27,736 nucleotides of DNA, from the IMG/VR virus record IMGVR_UViG_3300017747_002235, positions 1 to 27,736 of that record. One strand, given 5' to 3'. The position numbers were made by a program, and so were the translations under genes. Shown here piece by piece: positions 12,627-27,434 of the stretch; within the stretch, counting starts at the first letter, position 1; each line of letters starts with the position of its first letter. The stretch comes from a virus (taxonomy: Duplodnaviria > Caudoviricetes). The notes beneath the pieces were generated by a model that saw only the letters and a list, made by a program, of their open reading frames with translations, searched no databases and was not told where the DNA came from.

Positions 12627-12651
12627 GGGGGTCCTTAGGGACCCCTTTTTT
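12627..12651 (+). terminator. Rho-independent terminator at the convergence of the two arms
   Basis: GGGGTCC-TTAG-GGACCCC followed by TTTTTT. The U-tract is present only for the + strand transcript and overlaps the stop codon of the opposing gene. Confidence 0.85.
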
Positions 12652-15600
12652 ATCTCTTGTTTGCGTCATCTAGGCTCTGGCGTATACGGTGTATATCATT
12701 TAGCATGCGGTCTTTTGCATTCCGTATATTCTCCAGCACTTCCTCTTTGTCTGGTCTTTGCTCCAGGCTCCTGCCCCGCATGGTGCGTTCTGCAGCATTT
12801 AGTTCCGTAAGCTTAGTGCCTATTTTATTGACCGCAGAGCTTGTCCAGTCTGATAGGTATGCCTTGTTCTCTTTAACGAAAGCAGGTAGTTCATCAGCCC
12901 TACCCTTCTCTATTATGGATTTATAATCCCCGCGCACTTGAGCTACATGATTCTTTAATTCGTAGAACGCTTCCATATCCCCAGAAGGGTGTGTGTTGCC
13001 GCCAATTATAGAACCAACAACAGGCCATTTATTCATTGGCACTTTACTGTCTGACATGAGCACATTACTAAAGTCTCCTATAGCTGCGCCTACTAACCCC
13101 AAATGACCTTGCAAGTAATGGTCGATATGCACAGGAGACAGCCCCGGGATGTTTAGAGCTTCCCCGACAATTTTGGCCAGCTCGGATGTTGTGCTGTTAG
13201 TTTGAAATTGGGGGGACAAGTTTTTATTGTGGCTACCAACAATAGGCTTCATTGTATGCCAGTCGTAGTTAGTAACAGCCTCGATCTCTGGTTTAAACAA
13301 GGTAGGTATAGGGGTAAGTCCAGCTGCAATTTCGTACGACTTCTTTAGTACCCGCCCAGCAACCACTGGATCTTCCAACACCTTACCACTGCCACCACTG
13401 AATATCATGGAACGAGTCATACGCTCAATCAGAACTTTAAACGGGCGTAGTTCTTGGGGCACAGATATTTTTGTACCTATCCATAAGTTATCATCACGTT
13501 GGTCGTCGGTCTTCTTCTCGTAATCATCATCACCACTACGCATCGCTGCATAGGCTGCCACAAACATGGCATATTTAGTTAGTTTAAAGAGCAGTGCGTT
13601 CCTCCCTGCTGCGGTACTTACACCCGTCAAACGTCCTCTAGCGGCAGCTATGTCGCGCGCCCAGCCCTGTATAGGTGGGTTAATAAAGGGCACGAGAGCC
13701 CTCAGATAGGCTAGGGATTGAGACGTACCTACCTGTTGGTAGGGCATGTACCTGTTGGCGCGGATCGCGGCTGTGCTCTCTGCTAGCTCTTCTGATACCC
13801 CCTGGGCGAGCAGCTCTTTTTTAGCAGCATCAAATATAGCTTCCCTGGCACCCAAGTCACTGCCGTGCGCGAGGCGCTCGAAGAAGAACGCAGTCTTACG
13901 CCACCCCTTCTTATTCTTACCAGTGTATACGTCCTCTAGGGCTTGGGCGTCCATAGTATCCTTTTGCCCAGTAACACCGAAAGACTTGAGTATCTGTGCT
14001 GTCCTTGTGGGAGTACGGAATTGGTTATTAAAGATCGATGTCCAAGTATCTTTTGTATACCGCAGTAAGGACGCATCTTTATTACCAGCCACTAAGTACG
14101 CACGCATACTATCTTGCCACGCCTGGTTAAACACAAACTGGGGCATACTAGTAACCCCATGCCTTAAGGCTGCTGAGGCGTACTTCATTGCTGTGATAAT
14201 GCTTCCTGTTGCAACGGGCGGTGAGGCAAATGCTGCCACATCTAGTGGGTCGTTTAGGATGAAGTCCTGAGGCATGCCCTCCCTGTATATAACTACAGTA
14301 AGGTTCTTATGTTTTTCCTCATTAGTTAGTGGGGCTGTAGCCCATCTCCCGGCGCCCAGCTCTTCGAGCATATTAGCCATATGGATAGCTGCGTTGTTCT
14401 TTATCGCACGCTGCATCATCCACGACATATTCGCGCTGAAGTTTTGTATTGGATCAGCCACGAGCAAATCAGAACCGTGTATACGGAACTCCTTACCCAT
14501 ACCCAACAACCCACGCCCTGCCCTTATGTGGTTCTTGTTGGCATCGAACAGATCTTTCTCTTGCACGCGGTACATAGGTACGTAGTCAGCGTTCTCTAAA
14601 TACTCAGCCGCTTGCTCTTCTGTGTACAGCCCTGTACCTACCATAGTCTGTAATAGTGGCGCGCGCATCTGGTTACGGATCTTATCCATCTCAGCAAAAC
14701 CTGCGGCAAACTCACTTCGTGCTAACTTAGCATCTGCAGCCTTCTTCGGATCGCTTGTCCAGTCAGATACATTCACTTTGCTGTCTTCATACTCACGTAC
14801 TTTTTTAGCCCAGTTCTTAGGCTTGTTAGCTGTTAGTTCTTCTATCTTTCTATCTAGCTCGACGTTCCTTGCTTCCAGGCTATCGTATCTTGGGCCGTAC
14901 CAACCCTTTACAAGCATGTCATAGGCACGTTCCGCGCCGTATTTTTCAGTAGCTTTCGCCAGAGTTTCATGCCACACACGAGTAAGGTCAAGGATGTTTG
15001 CACCTTCTACCCCCCGCCCTGCGCGCATTATCCCGCTCTTCTCTAGTATCAACCTACCCAGCATCAATGCATCTTGGGATATACCTATGAAGTTAGTCGC
15101 TGCTTGGGTAATTAGATCTCCCCTGTGGATACCTTGAGCATTGAACTCGCCCATCTTTGCGTCTAGGGCTTTCCGTTCCGCAGAGTAAGTATTTGATATG
15201 AGCGCATTGCCTATACGGTCAAGAAGCTTCCTGAGGAAACCCCAGATACCGCCCTTACCGTTGTACACACCCCGTATAGCCGCAGCAGCAGATTCCTTTG
15301 TAGGCTTGCGGTAGGTTACATCGCTAAAGCCGTATTCCTCTTCTGGTGCTTCTTCATCAACCGCGTTGTGGATTTCTGGTTCTTCTGGTGGTTCCACTTT
15401 TGGTTCTGCTTGCGGCTCCCCTTCTGCTTGTGGTTCTGCTTTCACTCCAGGCTCTGCTTTCGCTTCGGCGCGGGGTTGTGATATAGGGCCTTCCAGTGGT
15501 GCAGCTGGGTCAAAGGAAGATACTCTTGCGGCTCCATACACCAGGCTAACAATGTCATTGGTAGTAAGTGCGTGGAGGTTGAGGTCTATCTTTCTAAGCG

Positions 15601-18385
15601 TTTCAGATATACCCGCCCACAGATTCTGCAGCCAAGTAATAACCGCGTTTCTTTGTTTTGTAAGTCCTGTTAGCGCCTCTATTCCATACTTCTCTATAGC
15701 GTACTGAGTAAAGTAAGCAATCGACTCTTCGCTATATTGCTCTGAGCCCCGTGTATATTTAAGTCCTTCTACGTGGCGTATTGCTTTTTTAGCAAGTTCC
15801 ACATGCACAGCATTTTCTTTTGTTATTGTTTGCTTTGCCCAAAAAGATATTTGGCTCGCCAACCGATCCCTACGCCCCGCGCCAATTAGCTTCTTTAGAC
15901 TTGTGTGCACGCCATACTCGTGCATTATCAAGGCCGTCTCTTTACCTTTTGGTATCCTGTTGGCTATATAAACGTCCTGCCCAGTCGCCACCACCACAAA
16001 AGCTCTAATGCCTGGGTTATCGATTGCCTTCTGGCGTATCACCTCGTTGATCGCTGGATCAGGGTGGGCCTCATAAGCATCTCTAGCATCGTTTATTATG
16101 ATAGGCTTATTTTTGCCTCTATAGCCTTCTGGGAATAATTTATTAAATGCCTCCATGAAGGAAGCTGCAGTAGATTTTTCACCCCTTGCTGGTTTCTTAC
16201 CGCGCTGGTACCTGATTGGTTCGTTGTCTTCTTGCGCGCTCTTTTGTATGTTCTCCGCTGCCGCTGCTTCGCGTGAACGCCTGCTCAGTGCTTCGGTATT
16301 GATTTTATCCGCGAGCCAATTAAATGCATTGGGGGATTTTTCAGGGTCTACCTTTGCAATACTCTGTTGCTCTGCGGGGGTTAGCTCATCGAAAGGTACT
16401 GTACCATCCCAAGCCGCTCTTGCACGTGCAATTAGTGGACTGCCCCCTCGCTTGTTGCTAGCTCCAGCTCCTTTACCAGGTCGTCCAGCAGGAGCGCCAG
16501 TGTCTCCCAGTCCTCCAGCGTTAGTTTCTTGAGCACCTTCAGGGACGGTTGCCTGTCCTCCGAGATCGCCAGGAATGCCTGAGTCAGTTCCTTCCCCGAC
16601 AGCCGCAGTTCCCTGGGCTCCAGTACGATCAATACCGTTTTCTCCATAGCCGCTTTCCTTGTCAAATAGTCCAATCTGGTTGGCCGCGCCTTCGGGTGCT
16701 TCTGCTGTGGCTTCGGGGCCAGCATTTATTTCTGTTCCTTCGCCCTCCGCGACCTGCTCTACTCCTGGTATATCGAGCTGCACCCCTTCACCGCGGGCCT
16801 CTCCGCCTTCTTGCGCATTGCGTATTATCTGCAATGCTTTTTGAGCATTCACATGCCCGTTTGCTGCTGCCAATTCCAACAACTTTATAGCTGCTGGTAT
16901 GTCTTGTTTAACGCCCTCACCTTTTACATACAGCGAGGCTAAGTTAAACTGTGCATCTGCAAACCCCCTGTCCGCTGCGCGCTTATATAGTGTTGCAGCT
17001 ATGGTGGTATCTTGTGGTACTCCCTGCCCGTGATAGTACATATTGCCAAGGAAGTTTTGGGCAGACTTATCTCCTTGTGCTGCGGCAGTTTGGTACTCTT
17101 TAGCTTGCGCTACGACCGCTGCTTGCTTTCTATCTATTTCTTCTTGCGCTGCTCGCTCACGCTGCTGCATCTCTTCAAATGCTTTTCTCTGCACTTCAAG
17201 CGATTTTCTCTGCGCCTCATCGCGCTGACGCATCTCTTCTTGAACTTTCTGTTGCGCTTGGCGGTCTACCAGTTCTTGGTCGTAGTCAATGCCTTTTTCT
17301 TCTAGTAGCTTTTGGCGGTTCTCTGTTGCTTGCTTCTTTAGTTTCTCTATGGCCTCTATCTCAGCAAGCTGCGACTTAGCAGGATTCTGCAAGGCATTCA
17401 TACCACCACCTAGGGCGGAGCCAGCTAACGCACCTTCTACACCCGCCCGGGCAACCCCCTCAAGTATCGGCTTACCTTCCGCCCAGTTCTGCCACATCTG
17501 TTCCTGCATGCCTTGAGGTAGCTCTTGTAAGATACCTTCGACTAAAACCCCAGACCCTATTCGGGCAGACAAAGATTTATCGGCTGCAGCTTTAAATGCC
17601 GCAAGCTCCGCCGCGGGTAGTTCGCCCCCAAGCACTGCTCTTTCTAATGTTTGGACACCAAACCTACCTGCTAAGTGCTGTGCTGCGCCACCAATACCTG
17701 CTGTAAACAAGCCCGCCCCAGCCGCTGCCATTGCTCTAGTCTGTGGGTCAACGCCAGGTGCTTCTTCTTTTATTTGTTGTCCTACTTGTCCTGTAGTTGC
17801 AAGACCTTCACCACCGCCCAAAGCAACGCCACTACCTACCTCGCGCCCAAAATACTTACCTGCAGCTTTAATGCCCTTACCATAGACACCGCCGCTGATC
17901 ATTCCAGGCACGCTACCTACTATATTGCCCAGTGTGGCTCCTGGGTTCAGTGCAACAGTTTTAGCAACATTACCCCATGTTGTTGGGTCTAAGGTCAGCG
18001 AAGGGGATTCCCAGGCTTCGGTTAGTTCCTGTTGGCTTTGTTGACGGCCTGGGGAATACTCTGCTTTTGCCGCCTCTGCTTTATCACTTGGGTGGAACCC
18101 TGTCTTACCAGCTAACCACTCACCAGCCTCAGTAACTGGACTTCCCTCATAACCCATTAAGTGCCCGGGGGTGTCAAGTAATTCTGCAGTCTGTCCGGGG
18201 AGGTTTAGGAACCCCCGCTTTATGTCGGTCGCAAGATCCCCACCAAGCCCAGTGTTTTGGTTTTTGTTTGGGGCTGGGGGTACATGCAGTGTTTCTAGGT
18301 ATTTAGCCAACGTCCGGACGGCTTCACCATCTCCCGCATTACCTGCGTTTATTATCGCCGAATGTATATCATCTATATTGCTCAT
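12650..18385 (-). CDS. Large polyvalent internal virion/ejection protein (Sel1 repeats, zincin-like metallopeptidase motif, LPD38-like C-terminus)
   Basis: 1911 aa and last gene of the structural arm. Gly/Ala hydrophobic N-region, coiled coil, Sel1 repeats (~17087-16832), acidic linker, HEYGVH...EESIAY (15922-15713), and C-terminal DDDY...VPQEL...KP.IE...NY....PIV...TSELAK...SP..IDH..QG.LG (~13531-13005). Confidence 0.85.
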   Translation of the reverse strand: MSNIDDIHSAIINAGNAGDGEAVRTLAKYLETLHVPPAPNKNQNTGLGGDLATDIKRGFLNLPGQTAELLDTPGHLMGYEGSPVTEAGEWLAGKTGFHPSDKAEAAKAEYSPGRQQSQQELTEAWESPSLTLDPTTWGNVAKTVALNPGATLGNIVGSVPGMISGGVYGKGIKAAGKYFGREVGSGVALGGGEGLATTGQVGQQIKEEAPGVDPQTRAMAAAGAGLFTAGIGGAAQHLAGRFGVQTLERAVLGGELPAAELAAFKAAADKSLSARIGSGVLVEGILQELPQGMQEQMWQNWAEGKPILEGVARAGVEGALAGSALGGGMNALQNPAKSQLAEIEAIEKLKKQATENRQKLLEEKGIDYDQELVDRQAQQKVQEEMRQRDEAQRKSLEVQRKAFEEMQQRERAAQEEIDRKQAAVVAQAKEYQTAAAQGDKSAQNFLGNMYYHGQGVPQDTTIAATLYKRAADRGFADAQFNLASLYVKGEGVKQDIPAAIKLLELAAANGHVNAQKALQIIRNAQEGGEARGEGVQLDIPGVEQVAEGEGTEINAGPEATAEAPEGAANQIGLFDKESGYGENGIDRTGAQGTAAVGEGTDSGIPGDLGGQATVPEGAQETNAGGLGDTGAPAGRPGKGAGASNKRGGSPLIARARAAWDGTVPFDELTPAEQQSIAKVDPEKSPNAFNWLADKINTEALSRRSREAAAAENIQKSAQEDNEPIRYQRGKKPARGEKSTAASFMEAFNKLFPEGYRGKNKPIIINDARDAYEAHPDPAINEVIRQKAIDNPGIRAFVVVATGQDVYIANRIPKGKETALIMHEYGVHTSLKKLIGAGRRDRLASQISFWAKQTITKENAVHVELAKKAIRHVEGLKYTRGSEQYSEESIAYFTQYAIEKYGIEALTGLTKQRNAVITWLQNLWAGISETLRKIDLNLHALTTNDIVSLVYGAARVSSFDPAAPLEGPISQPRAEAKAEPGVKAEPQAEGEPQAEPKVEPPEEPEIHNAVDEEAPEEEYGFSDVTYRKPTKESAAAAIRGVYNGKGGIWGFLRKLLDRIGNALISNTYSAERKALDAKMGEFNAQGIHRGDLITQAATNFIGISQDALMLGRLILEKSGIMRAGRGVEGANILDLTRVWHETLAKATEKYGAERAYDMLVKGWYGPRYDSLEARNVELDRKIEELTANKPKNWAKKVREYEDSKVNVSDWTSDPKKAADAKLARSEFAAGFAEMDKIRNQMRAPLLQTMVGTGLYTEEQAAEYLENADYVPMYRVQEKDLFDANKNHIRAGRGLLGMGKEFRIHGSDLLVADPIQNFSANMSWMMQRAIKNNAAIHMANMLEELGAGRWATAPLTNEEKHKNLTVVIYREGMPQDFILNDPLDVAAFASPPVATGSIITAMKYASAALRHGVTSMPQFVFNQAWQDSMRAYLVAGNKDASLLRYTKDTWTSIFNNQFRTPTRTAQILKSFGVTGQKDTMDAQALEDVYTGKNKKGWRKTAFFFERLAHGSDLGAREAIFDAAKKELLAQGVSEELAESTAAIRANRYMPYQQVGTSQSLAYLRALVPFINPPIQGWARDIAAARGRLTGVSTAAGRNALLFKLTKYAMFVAAYAAMRSGDDDYEKKTDDQRDDNLWIGTKISVPQELRPFKVLIERMTRSMIFSGGSGKVLEDPVVAGRVLKKSYEIAAGLTPIPTLFKPEIEAVTNYDWHTMKPIVGSHNKNLSPQFQTNSTTSELAKIVGEALNIPGLSPVHIDHYLQGHLGLVGAAIGDFSNVLMSDSKVPMNKWPVVGSIIGGNTHPSGDMEAFYELKNHVAQVRGDYKSIIEKGRADELPAFVKENKAYLSDWTSSAVNKIGTKLTELNAAERTMRGRSLEQRPDKEEVLENIRNAKDRMLNDIHRIRQSLDDANKR
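15375..15470 (-). repeat. Degenerate coding repeats (AEP/EP linker)
   Basis: Encodes AEAKAEPGVKAEPQAEGEPQAEPKVEPPEEPE, with repeated GGTTCTGCTT-like units on the + strand. Confidence 0.6.
16432..16647 (-). CDS. Candidate overprinted gene (71 aa, +1 frame) nested in the giant protein's linker
   Basis: AAGGA lies 8 nt before ATG 16647. The product is Leu/Glu-rich and amphipathic (MEKTVLIVLE...LTLEDWETLALLLDDLVKELELATSEGAVH). The host frame is Gly-rich low complexity over the same interval. Confidence 0.55.
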   Translation of the reverse strand: MEKTVLIVLEPRELRLSGKELTQAFLAISEDRQPSLKVLKKLTLEDWETLALLLDDLVKELELATSEGAVH

Positions 18386-24239: not shown

Positions 24240-26174
24240 TTAACCCCTAGTCCCATCAGCCCGGGCGTCAACCCGAGGCATACCCAACTGCCACTGCACA
24301 CCAACATCGCTTGATGCAATCTTAAAGTTCATCTGCCTTCCCCTAGCTCTAACAAATACTTGATTTGTATATTGATTTATTGTAGCTGTTGTCACTACTG
24401 TGCGGTCTGTTGATACCCCCGATGCGTTAGTTGTGCTGTTTGAAGCACCAGGGAAATTCCTCACCCCAACTGTCATAGTAGCTTCTGGGGTTAGTGGAGC
24501 ACCAGTAACACTGTTAACACTGTCCGAGCTACCAAAGTTTACATCTGGGATAATCCGACGCATAAGCATGAACTTCTCACCATCGTCGATGTCGATATCA
24601 GCGGACTGTATATAGGATGTTATAGGCAGTGGTTCTGCGCCCAAGGGCTGTCCGTCGTCGTGGCCGTTCTCGTGAGTATATACCCAGCCAGCGCCAGTAG
24701 CTACAGGATAAAAGATAACCCCAGCATCCAGCCATGCTGTGCGCTCTAACTGCCCGAAATACCAAATTTGCTCTGCGTAATTATACACTACATACCTGTT
24801 AATCTCATTAGATGTAGCAGAGCAATAGAACCAGATAATCTCATTGAATTGGTTGTTAGTACCTGCAAACACAATCTGCCCTTGGTCTCTATTAAGGTCG
24901 TCAAATATATACTGTCTCAAGGAGCACGGCAGGGTGGATACGGTTCCGTTGTAGCTGTAGAATTTCTCGTTACCCATCCAGTAAGATATGCTGTTAGCAG
25001 TAGCAACCACGTTAGGTCCGAGGATAGTAGAAGACGTTGATATTTCTTGTATCCCGAATACTTCTTGTGTGCCTAGGAACTGCAGTGATGCCAGCGATGT
25101 GTCTGTCCAAACCAATATTTCCTGCCGTGTCCGTGCTGCTGTGATAATATAGTTCCCTGACTGCAGCCGTAAGAACCCCGCTGTGTTAGTTAGTGTCGGT
25201 CTCCAGTCAACAGGTATAGGCCCAGCATCAGCATCCACGTTAGCCCAACGAATTATCAGTGGGTCTTTAGCACCAAGGTAGTTAGGCGCAGCCGCGCCAG
25301 CGTCGTATCCTGTGCAGTTAAAAGCCAACAGATGCCCTGTCGGGGCAAACATAATCTTCGCTACCTGCTGGGGTACAGCAAGCGCTGCCGCATCTGCCGA
25401 CATAAATATAGCGCGGGTTGCGAACGTGGCGTCATAGGTCCACTGGTATATGTAGCTGTCGTTTATATTAAATATGAGGTCGTCAAAGAACTTGTCTTGG
25501 AACTCTAACCTTGCTGGGAGCAGCACCGATATTAATGAGCTTGACCCCCACGTACCGCGGCCCCATGTAGAAGTCCCCCAGCCATATCCTGCAGTGACCA
25601 CACCGTACCCAATATTAATCTGAAACGCTGCTACGATAACTGCACCACCCCCAGCCGCTACTGTAGAAGTAGCTGCCCCCGAGACCACAATACTGAACTG
25701 GTTTGCAGTAATAAAAGTAATTGCAAATTCCTGGTTGAGCATCGGCGCGGTAACGCCACCGACAGCTACTGCCCCACTAAAGGTCACATAGTCACCGTCA
25801 ATAGCCCCATGCCCCACTATATTTACTAAGACTGTGGTAGACAGGTTTGTGGTTTGAAAGCAGTTATTTGTTGTCGGTGTCGTCAGTGTTGCCCGTATCG
25901 GAGTGATGTCGTACAGGTCGGTACCTGTCGATATGTATATCTTTTTGTTTGTACCTATGCACAGGAGCTCTTGCCCGCCACTGGTTGCCCAAGAAAATAG
26001 GCTGCGGCACGACCCTGCATACTGCTCAAATGTTTCTACCTTCCAACCACCAATCTTCTCAGGGAACCCAGAACGGAAACGAATCTTATCGCAGTCGTAC
26101 CAACCCCCTTCAGAGGCATAGTTTGTCTGGTCGCGGTTAAGTCCGGGTTTAAAAACTAATTTAGATAATGGCAT
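24240..26174 (-). CDS. Putative tail nozzle / tail tubular protein B (P22 gp10-like stabilisation protein)
   Basis: 644 aa, beta-rich and Trp-rich (KPGLNR...EGGWYD.DKIRFR.G.PEKIGGW; C-terminal RARGRQ...WQLG.PR.D...DG.R). Lies directly upstream of the internal-protein block. Confidence 0.75.
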   Translation of the reverse strand: MPLSKLVFKPGLNRDQTNYASEGGWYDCDKIRFRSGFPEKIGGWKVETFEQYAGSCRSLFSWATSGGQELLCIGTNKKIYISTGTDLYDITPIRATLTTPTTNNCFQTTNLSTTVLVNIVGHGAIDGDYVTFSGAVAVGGVTAPMLNQEFAITFITANQFSIVVSGAATSTVAAGGGAVIVAAFQINIGYGVVTAGYGWGTSTWGRGTWGSSSLISVLLPARLEFQDKFFDDLIFNINDSYIYQWTYDATFATRAIFMSADAAALAVPQQVAKIMFAPTGHLLAFNCTGYDAGAAAPNYLGAKDPLIIRWANVDADAGPIPVDWRPTLTNTAGFLRLQSGNYIITAARTRQEILVWTDTSLASLQFLGTQEVFGIQEISTSSTILGPNVVATANSISYWMGNEKFYSYNGTVSTLPCSLRQYIFDDLNRDQGQIVFAGTNNQFNEIIWFYCSATSNEINRYVVYNYAEQIWYFGQLERTAWLDAGVIFYPVATGAGWVYTHENGHDDGQPLGAEPLPITSYIQSADIDIDDGEKFMLMRRIIPDVNFGSSDSVNSVTGAPLTPEATMTVGVRNFPGASNSTTNASGVSTDRTVVTTATINQYTNQVFVRARGRQMNFKIASSDVGVQWQLGMPRVDARADGTRG

Positions 26175-26619
26175 TATTGGTTTCTTTTGTGAACATCCTA
26201 TATTCTGCTTCTCTTCTTCTGGTCAAGCCTTTAAGCACTTGGCCACCTGCCTTATTATACTTCAGTATTTCCTTCGCTGCAGCCTGTCTATCTTGTCTGA
26301 GAAGCTTTCGTCTGAGCGTTGATCTCTGAAGTACCCCCAAACCAAGATTAAAGCTAAAGCTGACAAGAGAATCAAACTCAAATTGAGTGAGAGGCACGGG
26401 ACAGTAACGGCGCACACCCTGTTCAAATCTTGCCAAATCTGTTCTAAGAAGTTCATCTATTTCTCCTCGTGTGTAGAGTTGCTTTTCTGGTGCTTCCTTG
26501 CCGTTACCTATTACGTGTCCGTAACCGACAGTCCAAAACTTCGCAGGGCATAGGTAGGGTTTCAACTTACATCCTTCGAACCTTTTAATTAAGTCTATGC
26601 CAGCCTGTGATGTTTTCAT
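26161..26619 (-). CDS. Endolysin, GH24 lysozyme (soluble, no SAR)
   Basis: IKRFEG...YLCPA..WTVGYGH gives an E-x8-C-x5-T triad. Also FDSLVSFSFNLG and GLTRRREAE. Confidence 0.95.
   Translation of the reverse strand: MKTSQAGIDLIKRFEGCKLKPYLCPAKFWTVGYGHVIGNGKEAPEKQLYTRGEIDELLRTDLARFEQGVRRYCPVPLTQFEFDSLVSFSFNLGLGVLQRSTLRRKLLRQDRQAAAKEILKYNKAGGQVLKGLTRRREAEYRMFTKETNNAII
26262..26456 (-). CDS. Candidate nested single-TM membrane protein (64 aa, +1 frame) inside the endolysin
   Basis: SD GAGGAG (26468-26463) lies 6 nt before ATG. Uncharged stretch LSLNLSLILLSALALILVWGYF, followed by a charged tail ending RLQRRKY. Confidence 0.45.
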   Translation of the reverse strand: MNFLEQIWQDLNRVCAVTVPCLSLNLSLILLSALALILVWGYFRDQRSDESFSDKIDRLQRRKY

Positions 26620-26948
26620 AGTGCAATCAATTAGTTACTGTGCCGTTTTAGAGATAGTGTTTCCTCTGCTTAGAGATAATTATGGGAAAACATACTACTT
26701 TTCCCACTTAAAATAAAATACACACTCTAGATACGTCTACCTAGCGATACCTGTACTCAGGTCTGTTTTGCACCCTTGCGGAGTGTTAGTGTTGAGAGAG
26801 ACCACCCGTACTTCTCGCAGAGGAGTGGTGCGTATTAACATTGTAAACTTAACCAAGCCCTACAATCATAGCTAATCGGACAAAAATGTCCGGTTATGCG
26901 TGAAGGTCTTGTTGCATCTCACGTTGCACCACTGCAACATCTTTTGAA
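26620..26948 (-). ncRNA. Putative structured non-coding RNA / cis-regulatory element, family unrecognised
   Basis: The largest gap in the window (329 nt), with no ORF of 60 aa or more. At least eight hairpins plus a long-range closing stem were found by eye. Several contain G-U pairs only on the - strand. Confidence 0.55.
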
Positions 26949-27434
26949 TCATTTCCCGTTAAACGCTCTTGACCCAAACCAAAAGGACAGCACGCTGGCC
27001 CAAACTATCTTCATGTCCTCATCCCACAGCATACTCATAGCAACTGGGAATGTAACGCCTGTACTGATAGAGTAGTAGAAACCAAATATCTCAACAAATA
27101 CTAGGAGACAAAAAAGGCCATAAGTAATAACAGGACGCACCATAGCGCGAGCGTTAATAGCCCAGGTTGACGCTCCCTTACTAATTTCAATATCGTGCTG
27201 ATATAAGGCTTCCCTTTCGCTGCTTGCCGCTTGCGTCTGTATCTCGTCATATTTAATCTCCTCGATTTTAACTTGACTTGCCAACCCTGCCTTCTGTAAC
27301 TCCAACTCCCTGGTCAATTGCAACTGCGCCATCTCTAGCTCGTGTTTCTTGTCTCCCTTATCTTGGAAGAAGTCCATGACCTTAGGCACACCGGCTGTAA
27401 GAAAGCTAACTATAGTAGTAAATAGGGTGAACAT
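26949..27434 (-). CDS. Holin-like membrane protein (GTA 3TM holin-like)
   Basis: Start ATG 27434 behind SD GAGGT. N-terminal hydrophobic helix, coiled coil (KKHELEM), W.INARAMVRPVITY followed by a TM segment, and C-terminal SFWFGSR. Located upstream of the endolysin. Confidence 0.8.
   Translation of the reverse strand: MFTLFTTIVSFLTAGVPKVMDFFQDKGDKKHELEMAQLQLTRELELQKAGLASQVKIEEIKYDEIQTQAASSEREALYQHDIEISKGASTWAINARAMVRPVITYGLFCLLVFVEIFGFYYSISTGVTFPVAMSMLWDEDMKIVWASVLSFWFGSRAFNGK

Follow-up and report, generated by a model that had tools for sequence, protein, structure and literature searches.

What fills the long gap between two neighbouring genes in a phage arm that is otherwise tightly packed? 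The window, i.e. the whole stretch of 27,736 nucleotides analysed here, is a phage fragment representing about 44% of the genome according to the record's own completeness estimate. In the ORF listing the arm's remaining genes touch or overlap their neighbours, as had been described, unlike the 329-nt gap (26948-26620), which has a membrane-type gene on one side and a Pfam phage lysozyme gene on the other:

26949..27434, minus strand: membrane-type gene, 5' of the gap (ORF call; phrog_6637, no Pfam family; hydrophobic segments)
26161..26619, minus strand: endolysin, a phage lysozyme (PF00959, E 7e-41; phrog_7)

A preliminary description of this DNA had placed the gap between holin and endolysin and had read it as one structured RNA of the messenger strand. 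The endolysin is supported by its Pfam match, whereas the product of 26949..27434 is holin-like and is a putative holin by hydropathy and position. Elsewhere in the window, positions 12650-18385 encode a 1,911-aa structural-arm protein with repeat-like segments.

Folding and coding potential of the gap

The ten stems proposed for the gap were all found in place (10/10), and the whole gap folds better than its shuffled versions on both strands. The proposed preference for the messenger strand was not borne out: z is -2.29 on the minus strand (equalled by 3 of 100 shuffles) and -3.00 on the plus strand (0 of 100), so the non-messenger strand folds better. The G-U pairs taken as a sign of RNA are present, but no compensatory change was seen among 13 homologues in any stem of the 5' third. 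In the proposed multibranch domain (core 26838-26709) pairing is firm, with probabilities of 0.72-1.0, for the closing helix 26836-26830/26723-26717 and for the hairpins 26762-26749 and 26744-26727. The hairpins 26829-26801 and 26785-26771 have a probability of about 0, since another pairing is more stable by 4.4 kcal/mol.

The lack of resemblance to a tRNA or a group I core was confirmed, with 0 genes found by ARAGORN and 0 matches to RF00028 at E<=10. Rfam gave 0 matches in the window (best E 7.2 over 26500-27050), the C4 antisense RNA model RF01695 gave 0 matches at E<=10, and Rfam 15 over positions 30-360 of L161, a locus of another phage type, gave a best E of 0.59 with no family above the gathering threshold. 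No group I insertion signature was seen: the central part of the gap is flanked by non-coding modules, has no terminal G and has variable ends. A decayed protein gene is contradicted by the lack of any ORF of at least 50 aa in the gap and by the short frames of the homologues, which are broken by stops; box positions are invariant among homologues, with no codon-type variation. Neither the gap nor parts of it gave a meaningful match in BLAST searches of annotated phages and plasmids.

The gap as a mosaic of short modules

Relatives were collected by scans for both flanking proteins, which gave 160 loci; the close relatives are 19 distinct records with an upstream protein at least 69% identical. 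In these 19 the gap ranges from -11 to 1,814 nt (at most 3 nt in three records, 49-56 in four, 136-257 in eight and 641-1,814 in four), and in more distant relatives from -1 to 26 nt. Two relatives, L081 and L082, have no gap at all although their upstream protein is 97-98% identical, and the stretch 26872-26681 was held by none of the 160 flank-protein loci. Where a gap is present, it is assembled from a common set of short modules, whose combinations vary between records, are patchy on the gene tree and do not track it. The gap is thus a patchwork of short DNA palindromes and not one RNA. In the window the following modules were delimited:

26911..26950, no strand assigned: M3, a palindromic DNA site of four boxes, two direct and two inverted, at fixed spacing; the first box is degenerate here
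26875..26892, no strand assigned: M4, a palindrome of hicAB-operator type (also TetR-type and phage) without a -35 box, from bacterial and viral matches
26840..26866, no strand assigned: M5, an imperfect inverted repeat, partly common to L161
26709..26836, minus strand: M6, a 128-nt multibranch core with a T-rich tail, whole in L161 and in one contig of sequencing run X3, and marked by its folding z
26682..26706, no strand assigned: M10, a copy of the palindrome that lies across the -10 box of an AbiEi (DUF6088)-AbiEii operon, a putative AbiEi operator by sequence match
26647..26680, no strand assigned: M8, a short direct repeat, from the comparison of relatives
26620..26638, no strand assigned: M9, a conserved word just 5' of the endolysin start

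The modules also occur at two unrelated loci of other phage types, the L161 group and L302. In L161, M3, M4 and the complete core, along with a portion of M5, lie near a terminase gene; in its relatives L296, L354, L370, L371 and L374 only M3 and M4 are found at this place. L172 has the 3' half of the core and M10, likewise in the lysis gap; L188 and L195 do not differ from the window and are not independent. In L302 the modules stand ahead of another gene, together with short scraps of both flanking genes. These arrangements suggest a gain and loss of modules through recombination where short words are shared. An insertion of precisely 190 nt (intron or MITE) was considered and dropped, as L161 and L172 have break points elsewhere.

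Several further arrangements were observed. In the third phage type, one intergenic region (L302:630-965) combines the end of the coding sequence for the holin-like product, M3b/M4/M1 and the first codons of the endolysin with at least four more palindromes. A two-hairpin module, M7, replaces M10 in L161:259-313, L084:2547-2600 and the X1-X3 contigs; the window is without M7. In the unrelated phages L285, L308, L309, L312, L361 and L372, M4 is followed between genes by other short modules in changing order. The gene set of the complete relative G015 (L590:11998-12615, 16633-17241) is a different one, with ERF, NinG, Mom and a DruA-like gene, so the lysis cassette and the array move between phage types. 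Free-standing homing endonuclease genes lie in the gap of L083 (2263-2835), L098 (619-1374) and L099 (3277-5092), those of L083 and L098 being of GIY-YIG type, and in L083 and L099 the endolysin start is apparently duplicated ahead of the inserted gene. Of the four relatives with gaps of 641-1,814 nt, two contain confirmed homing endonuclease genes.

M10 at abiE promoters

A first search of 401 Burkholderiales genomes returned two matches, both to M10. In all, 14 bacterial loci were compared with M10, nine identical over 25/25 positions and five over 24/25, the non-palindromic spacer included; in the Burkholderiales family of G397, 13 of the 251 genomes have an M10 match with E no higher than 3e-4, and this family is the best host candidate. 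Downstream of the M10-type sites, DUF6088 was confirmed in 10 of the 12 loci scanned and AbiEii in 2 of 2. The site spans a -10-like hexamer, and in most loci the antitoxin gene starts about 22 nt further on. A rough estimate allowing for palindromy puts the probability of such an M10-abiE match by chance at about 2e-4. M10 is therefore an inverted repeat of the kind found at an abiEi-abiEii promoter, and on the mRNA strand of the phage it also scores as a terminator-like hairpin. By its position, and by analogy with the autoregulation of another abiE, it would be a repressing operator bound by AbiEi; AbiEi autoregulates abiE (PMC7725324).

M4 at hicAB promoters

The bacterial search for M4 used the word with two flanking bases and gave 92 loci, with no ORF called at 23 of them. 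The ORFs downstream of the other 69 comprised 19 HicA, 2 HicB-like, 6 TetR and 42 of other type or without assignment, and at 21 of these 69 loci the M4-type site falls between the -35 and -10 boxes of a hicAB promoter. The mean match to the -35 consensus was 4.4/6 in the 21 hicAB loci, a mean lowered by three loci scored at another site or orientation, versus 2.1/6 in 12 phage copies. Some 140 viral stretches contain M4 as well, frequently as tandem copies and also at operator-like phage positions; its loop is inverted in L092. The palindrome accordingly lies in hicA promoters, as expected of a HicAB operator, but it is not specific for HicB because the same word precedes TetR-type genes (6/69) and forms tandem arrays in phages. 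At L394-L485, a family of HicA-like toxins with scores close to the Pfam cut-off or under it has one promoter palindrome in common across several phyla, which predicts their operator.

Other modules and their host matches

Two modules of the relatives and a variant of M8 were also matched to TA promoters. M1 gave 22 matches versus 4 for its control in 171 genomes, and 8 of the 18 places examined stand directly before an HTH_3 + HipA pair. In several relatives a palindrome of the kind seen at vapBC promoters takes the place of the second half of M8; this M8 variant gave one match versus one for the control, the match standing directly before a MazE-type antitoxin and PIN pair. The position of M1 and of the M8 variant at TA promoters had in both cases been predicted ahead of the search. 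M2 matches a promoter palindrome of DUF4172-Fic type (E 8.5e-4, 1 of 241 genomes).

In M3 the boxes are constant and the spacers variable among 13 homologues, and neither M3 nor M4 shows a two-sided change. The M3 centre gave 14 matches, mostly intergenic, versus 5 for the control, in 12 of 171 genomes of the candidate host family, and these matches stand before porin and other non-TA genes. M3 is thus likely to be a host transcription-factor site. As a side observation, five loci of the G397 family (L554, L555, L560, L557 and L562) have the M3 palindrome before porin or cytochrome-porin-like genes, which may form a regulon; at L557 the M8 word lies 12 nt beyond the palindrome. The genes beside three M3 sites presumably resemble the iron-oxidiser protein Cyc2.

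The remaining parts of the gap have no such counterpart. M5 had no convincing host match in 241 genomes, and M5, M6, M8 and M9 together, over half of the gap, had no credible host match; the same holds for the host search with the palindromes of L302. The bacterial matches of M9 were attributed to chance, as they fall inside the coding region of xseA, and so were most M0-M3 matches and all matches of the L302 palindromes. One match (E 0.016), next to an Abi_2 gene in L524, was too weak to be counted as evidence. No TA family was found among the 24 ORFs of the window and the 57 ORFs of the complete relative G015 (81 phage ORFs).

The core M6 as a candidate RNA

The multibranch domain proposed for 26836-26717 fared better than the gap as a whole. 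M6 is present whole in three contexts, namely the window, L161 and one X3 contig with different flanks, and in X3 the match and the closing helix start at exactly the same base. It folds with z -2.42 as RNA (minus strand) and -0.86 as DNA; in L161, z is -2.75 on the mRNA strand and -2.29 on the other strand, and the outer pair is lost. A z of -2.4 is reached by 5 of 214 tiles of the genome. In the X3 contig, whose depth of 4.5 makes errors possible, one G-U pair becomes A-U, the GNRA loop is still GNRA and the other changes fall in loops or linkers. No two-sided compensatory change was found among the homologues, which are only near-identical ones, and the single one-sided change is that of the low-depth contig.

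Further homologues were sought with little return. Pattern scans of viral contigs for the core returned only the record of L161 (1/1, 1/1, 1/6, 1/52 and 1/2 loci). Among 28 metagenome loci the core was seen in L172 and in two copies identical to the window. With the covariance model R1, one of 50 viral records was matched, and in a set of 92 loci L172 alone; the window has no second copy. The sequencing-run search covered 4 of 22 runs, with no RNA run among the matches listed. Six motifs sought in three supplementary files of the viral candidate RNA catalogue (PMC10690425) gave no match. M6 is therefore a weak candidate for a structured RNA. The proposed domain stands as a unit that travels whole into two other contexts; its role in lysis control is not supported, and L172 holds only its 3' half.

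Discussion

A decoy of host TA operators is the favoured reading

We propose, tentatively and with slightly less than even confidence, that the array is a DNA decoy of captured host TA operators, which would titrate or sequester TA complexes during replication. TA operons are autorepressed through palindromes of this kind (PMC7725324, PMC11594946, PMC7029023). Judged from sequence, the phage palindromes would be bound by antitoxins. As the phage genome replicates, its operator copies would come to outnumber those of the host and would draw antitoxins or antitoxin-toxin complexes onto phage DNA. Toxins might thereby be kept in inactive DNA-bound complexes, and antitoxin-first operons (abiE, hipBA, vapBC) would be derepressed, with more antitoxin synthesis and weaker abortive infection. 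This reading is favoured by the mosaic, by the promoter-position matches of M10 and M4, by those of M1, the M8 variant and M2 of the relatives, by the missing -35 box and by the lack of TA genes in the scanned ORFs. Against it, the array is dispensable, the gap being at most 3 nt in 3 of the 19 close relatives and 49-56 nt in four more; M4 is a generic palindrome, the M8 variant has one match versus one in the control and M2 is found in only 1 of 241 genomes; M3 stands before non-TA genes, and over half of the gap is without host match. In addition, hicAB is toxin-first, so titration of HicB could raise the toxin. A broader form of the proposal, less probable but worth considering, is that bare operators of AbiE, HicAB, HipBA, VapBC and Fic are gathered in an exchangeable array which would disarm abortive infection by DNA titration alone and whose content would record the defence systems of the host lineage.

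Alternative explanations

The array could instead be neutral debris, promoter scraps of host TA cassettes and other genes left at a tolerant hotspot, with the shared words serving only as crossover points. That homing endonuclease genes have entered the hotspot as well (L083, L098, L099), that L302 has scraps of the upstream gene's end and of the endolysin's start beside the modules, and that L172 resembles a crossover at a shared 12-nt word are all consistent with such an origin. Yet the palindromes are kept, trimmed near their ends and without -35 box or coding sequence, the boxes are constant while the spacers vary, and the assigned modules point to a TA promoter in five cases. We consider this explanation rather unlikely, though it deserves to be taken seriously.

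Phages use host repressors in cis, and host repressors bound in the gap could block or tune transcription of the endolysin, tying the timing of lysis to the TA or stress state of the host. The sites lie directly before the endolysin, M3 and M4 directly precede a gene in the L296 group as well, and M10 is terminator-like on the mRNA strand. However, the content of the gap varies from phage to phage and is sometimes absent, the -35 box is lost, and the promoter scan of the gap gave one promoter-like site versus 1.1 expected, i.e. the chance level; five unrelated types of TA operator together are also difficult to accommodate in one circuit. Control in cis is hence a decidedly doubtful explanation.

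It is improbable, too, that M6 is a mobile phage sRNA, perhaps an RNA mimic directed against a defence system, with the flanking palindromes being incidental. The three contexts, the X3 match beginning at the closing helix, the z values of -2.42 and -2.75 on the mRNA strand, the G-U pairs and the T-rich tail would agree with it, and the X3 changes, read by position, keep the helices of the preliminary description. Against this, the further viral scans and the covariance model yielded no extra homologue and no two-sided change was seen; L172 retains half of the domain, the two strands fold alike in L161 with loss of the outer pair, genome tiles reach similar z values (5/214), the depth of the X3 contig is only 4.5, and M4 and M10 are left unexplained.

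Finally, that the whole 329 nt are one ncRNA, ribozyme, intron or lysis leader, as first suggested, is very improbable despite the many hairpins and the whole-gap z of -2.29, and is largely refuted by the relatives, given the mosaic structure, the gapless relatives with a 97-98% identical upstream protein, the better folding of the opposite strand, the lack of Rfam, group I intron or C4 match and a 5' third without covariation.

Comparison with known systems

If the decoy role holds, the array would be a new form of phage mimicry, that of DNA operators; a full-text search, which mostly leaves subscription papers outside its coverage, found no paper on phage-borne TA operator decoys or arrays, and PMC4803016 gives no operator sequences. 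Such an array would be cheap to gain and would cover several systems, and TA autoregulation itself could be tested as a target in the phage-host arms race. An exact operator match might also permit host prediction for uncultured phages, and hairpin-dense intergenic DNA of phages can be stacked DNA operators rather than RNA.

The palindromes of the gap share with the operators of AbiE (type IV), HicAB, HipBA and VapBC their position over the -10 box or between the -35 and -10 boxes of the matched promoters, with matches of up to 25/25. HicB binds palindromes overlapping the -10 box (PMC11594946), and the toxin HipA is believed to be kept in check by its dimerisation within HipA/HipB/operator complexes (PMC7029023). 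The sites described here differ in being phage-borne, without TA genes or -35 box, and in having several types adjoining; their sequences are putative operators. Their resemblance to the PeSL cassettes of T4-like phages, in which PeSL-mediated shuffling is described (PMC2839356), and to boundary sequences (PMC3029335) lies in short conserved intergenic stem-loop modules, variable regions and crossover points. PeSLs, however, are repeated phage promoter and terminator units flanking ORFans, whereas the modules of the gap are promoterless and match host TA promoters; no strong sigma-70-type promoter was found, and each module occurs once, both in the window and in those records that were searched.

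As to function, synthetic transcription-factor decoy sites have been engineered in E. coli (PMC7826281), where extra binding sites titrate a regulator as the array would; here the sites are natural, viral and putative. The closest parallels among phages are the repeats of phage TE pseudo-ToxI RNA, a case of TA mimicry (PMC3475682), and a DarTG antitoxin mimic used in counter-defence (PMC11481870). In these cases, as in the array, the phage carries a copy or mimic of a host TA part, and arrays can expand and recombine; pseudo-ToxI and the DarTG mimic imitate an antitoxin as RNA or protein, whereas the phage array would mimic the DNA operator, and that of several TA families. The known phage answers to TA defence thus mimic the antitoxin itself, and an operator array would represent a different route.
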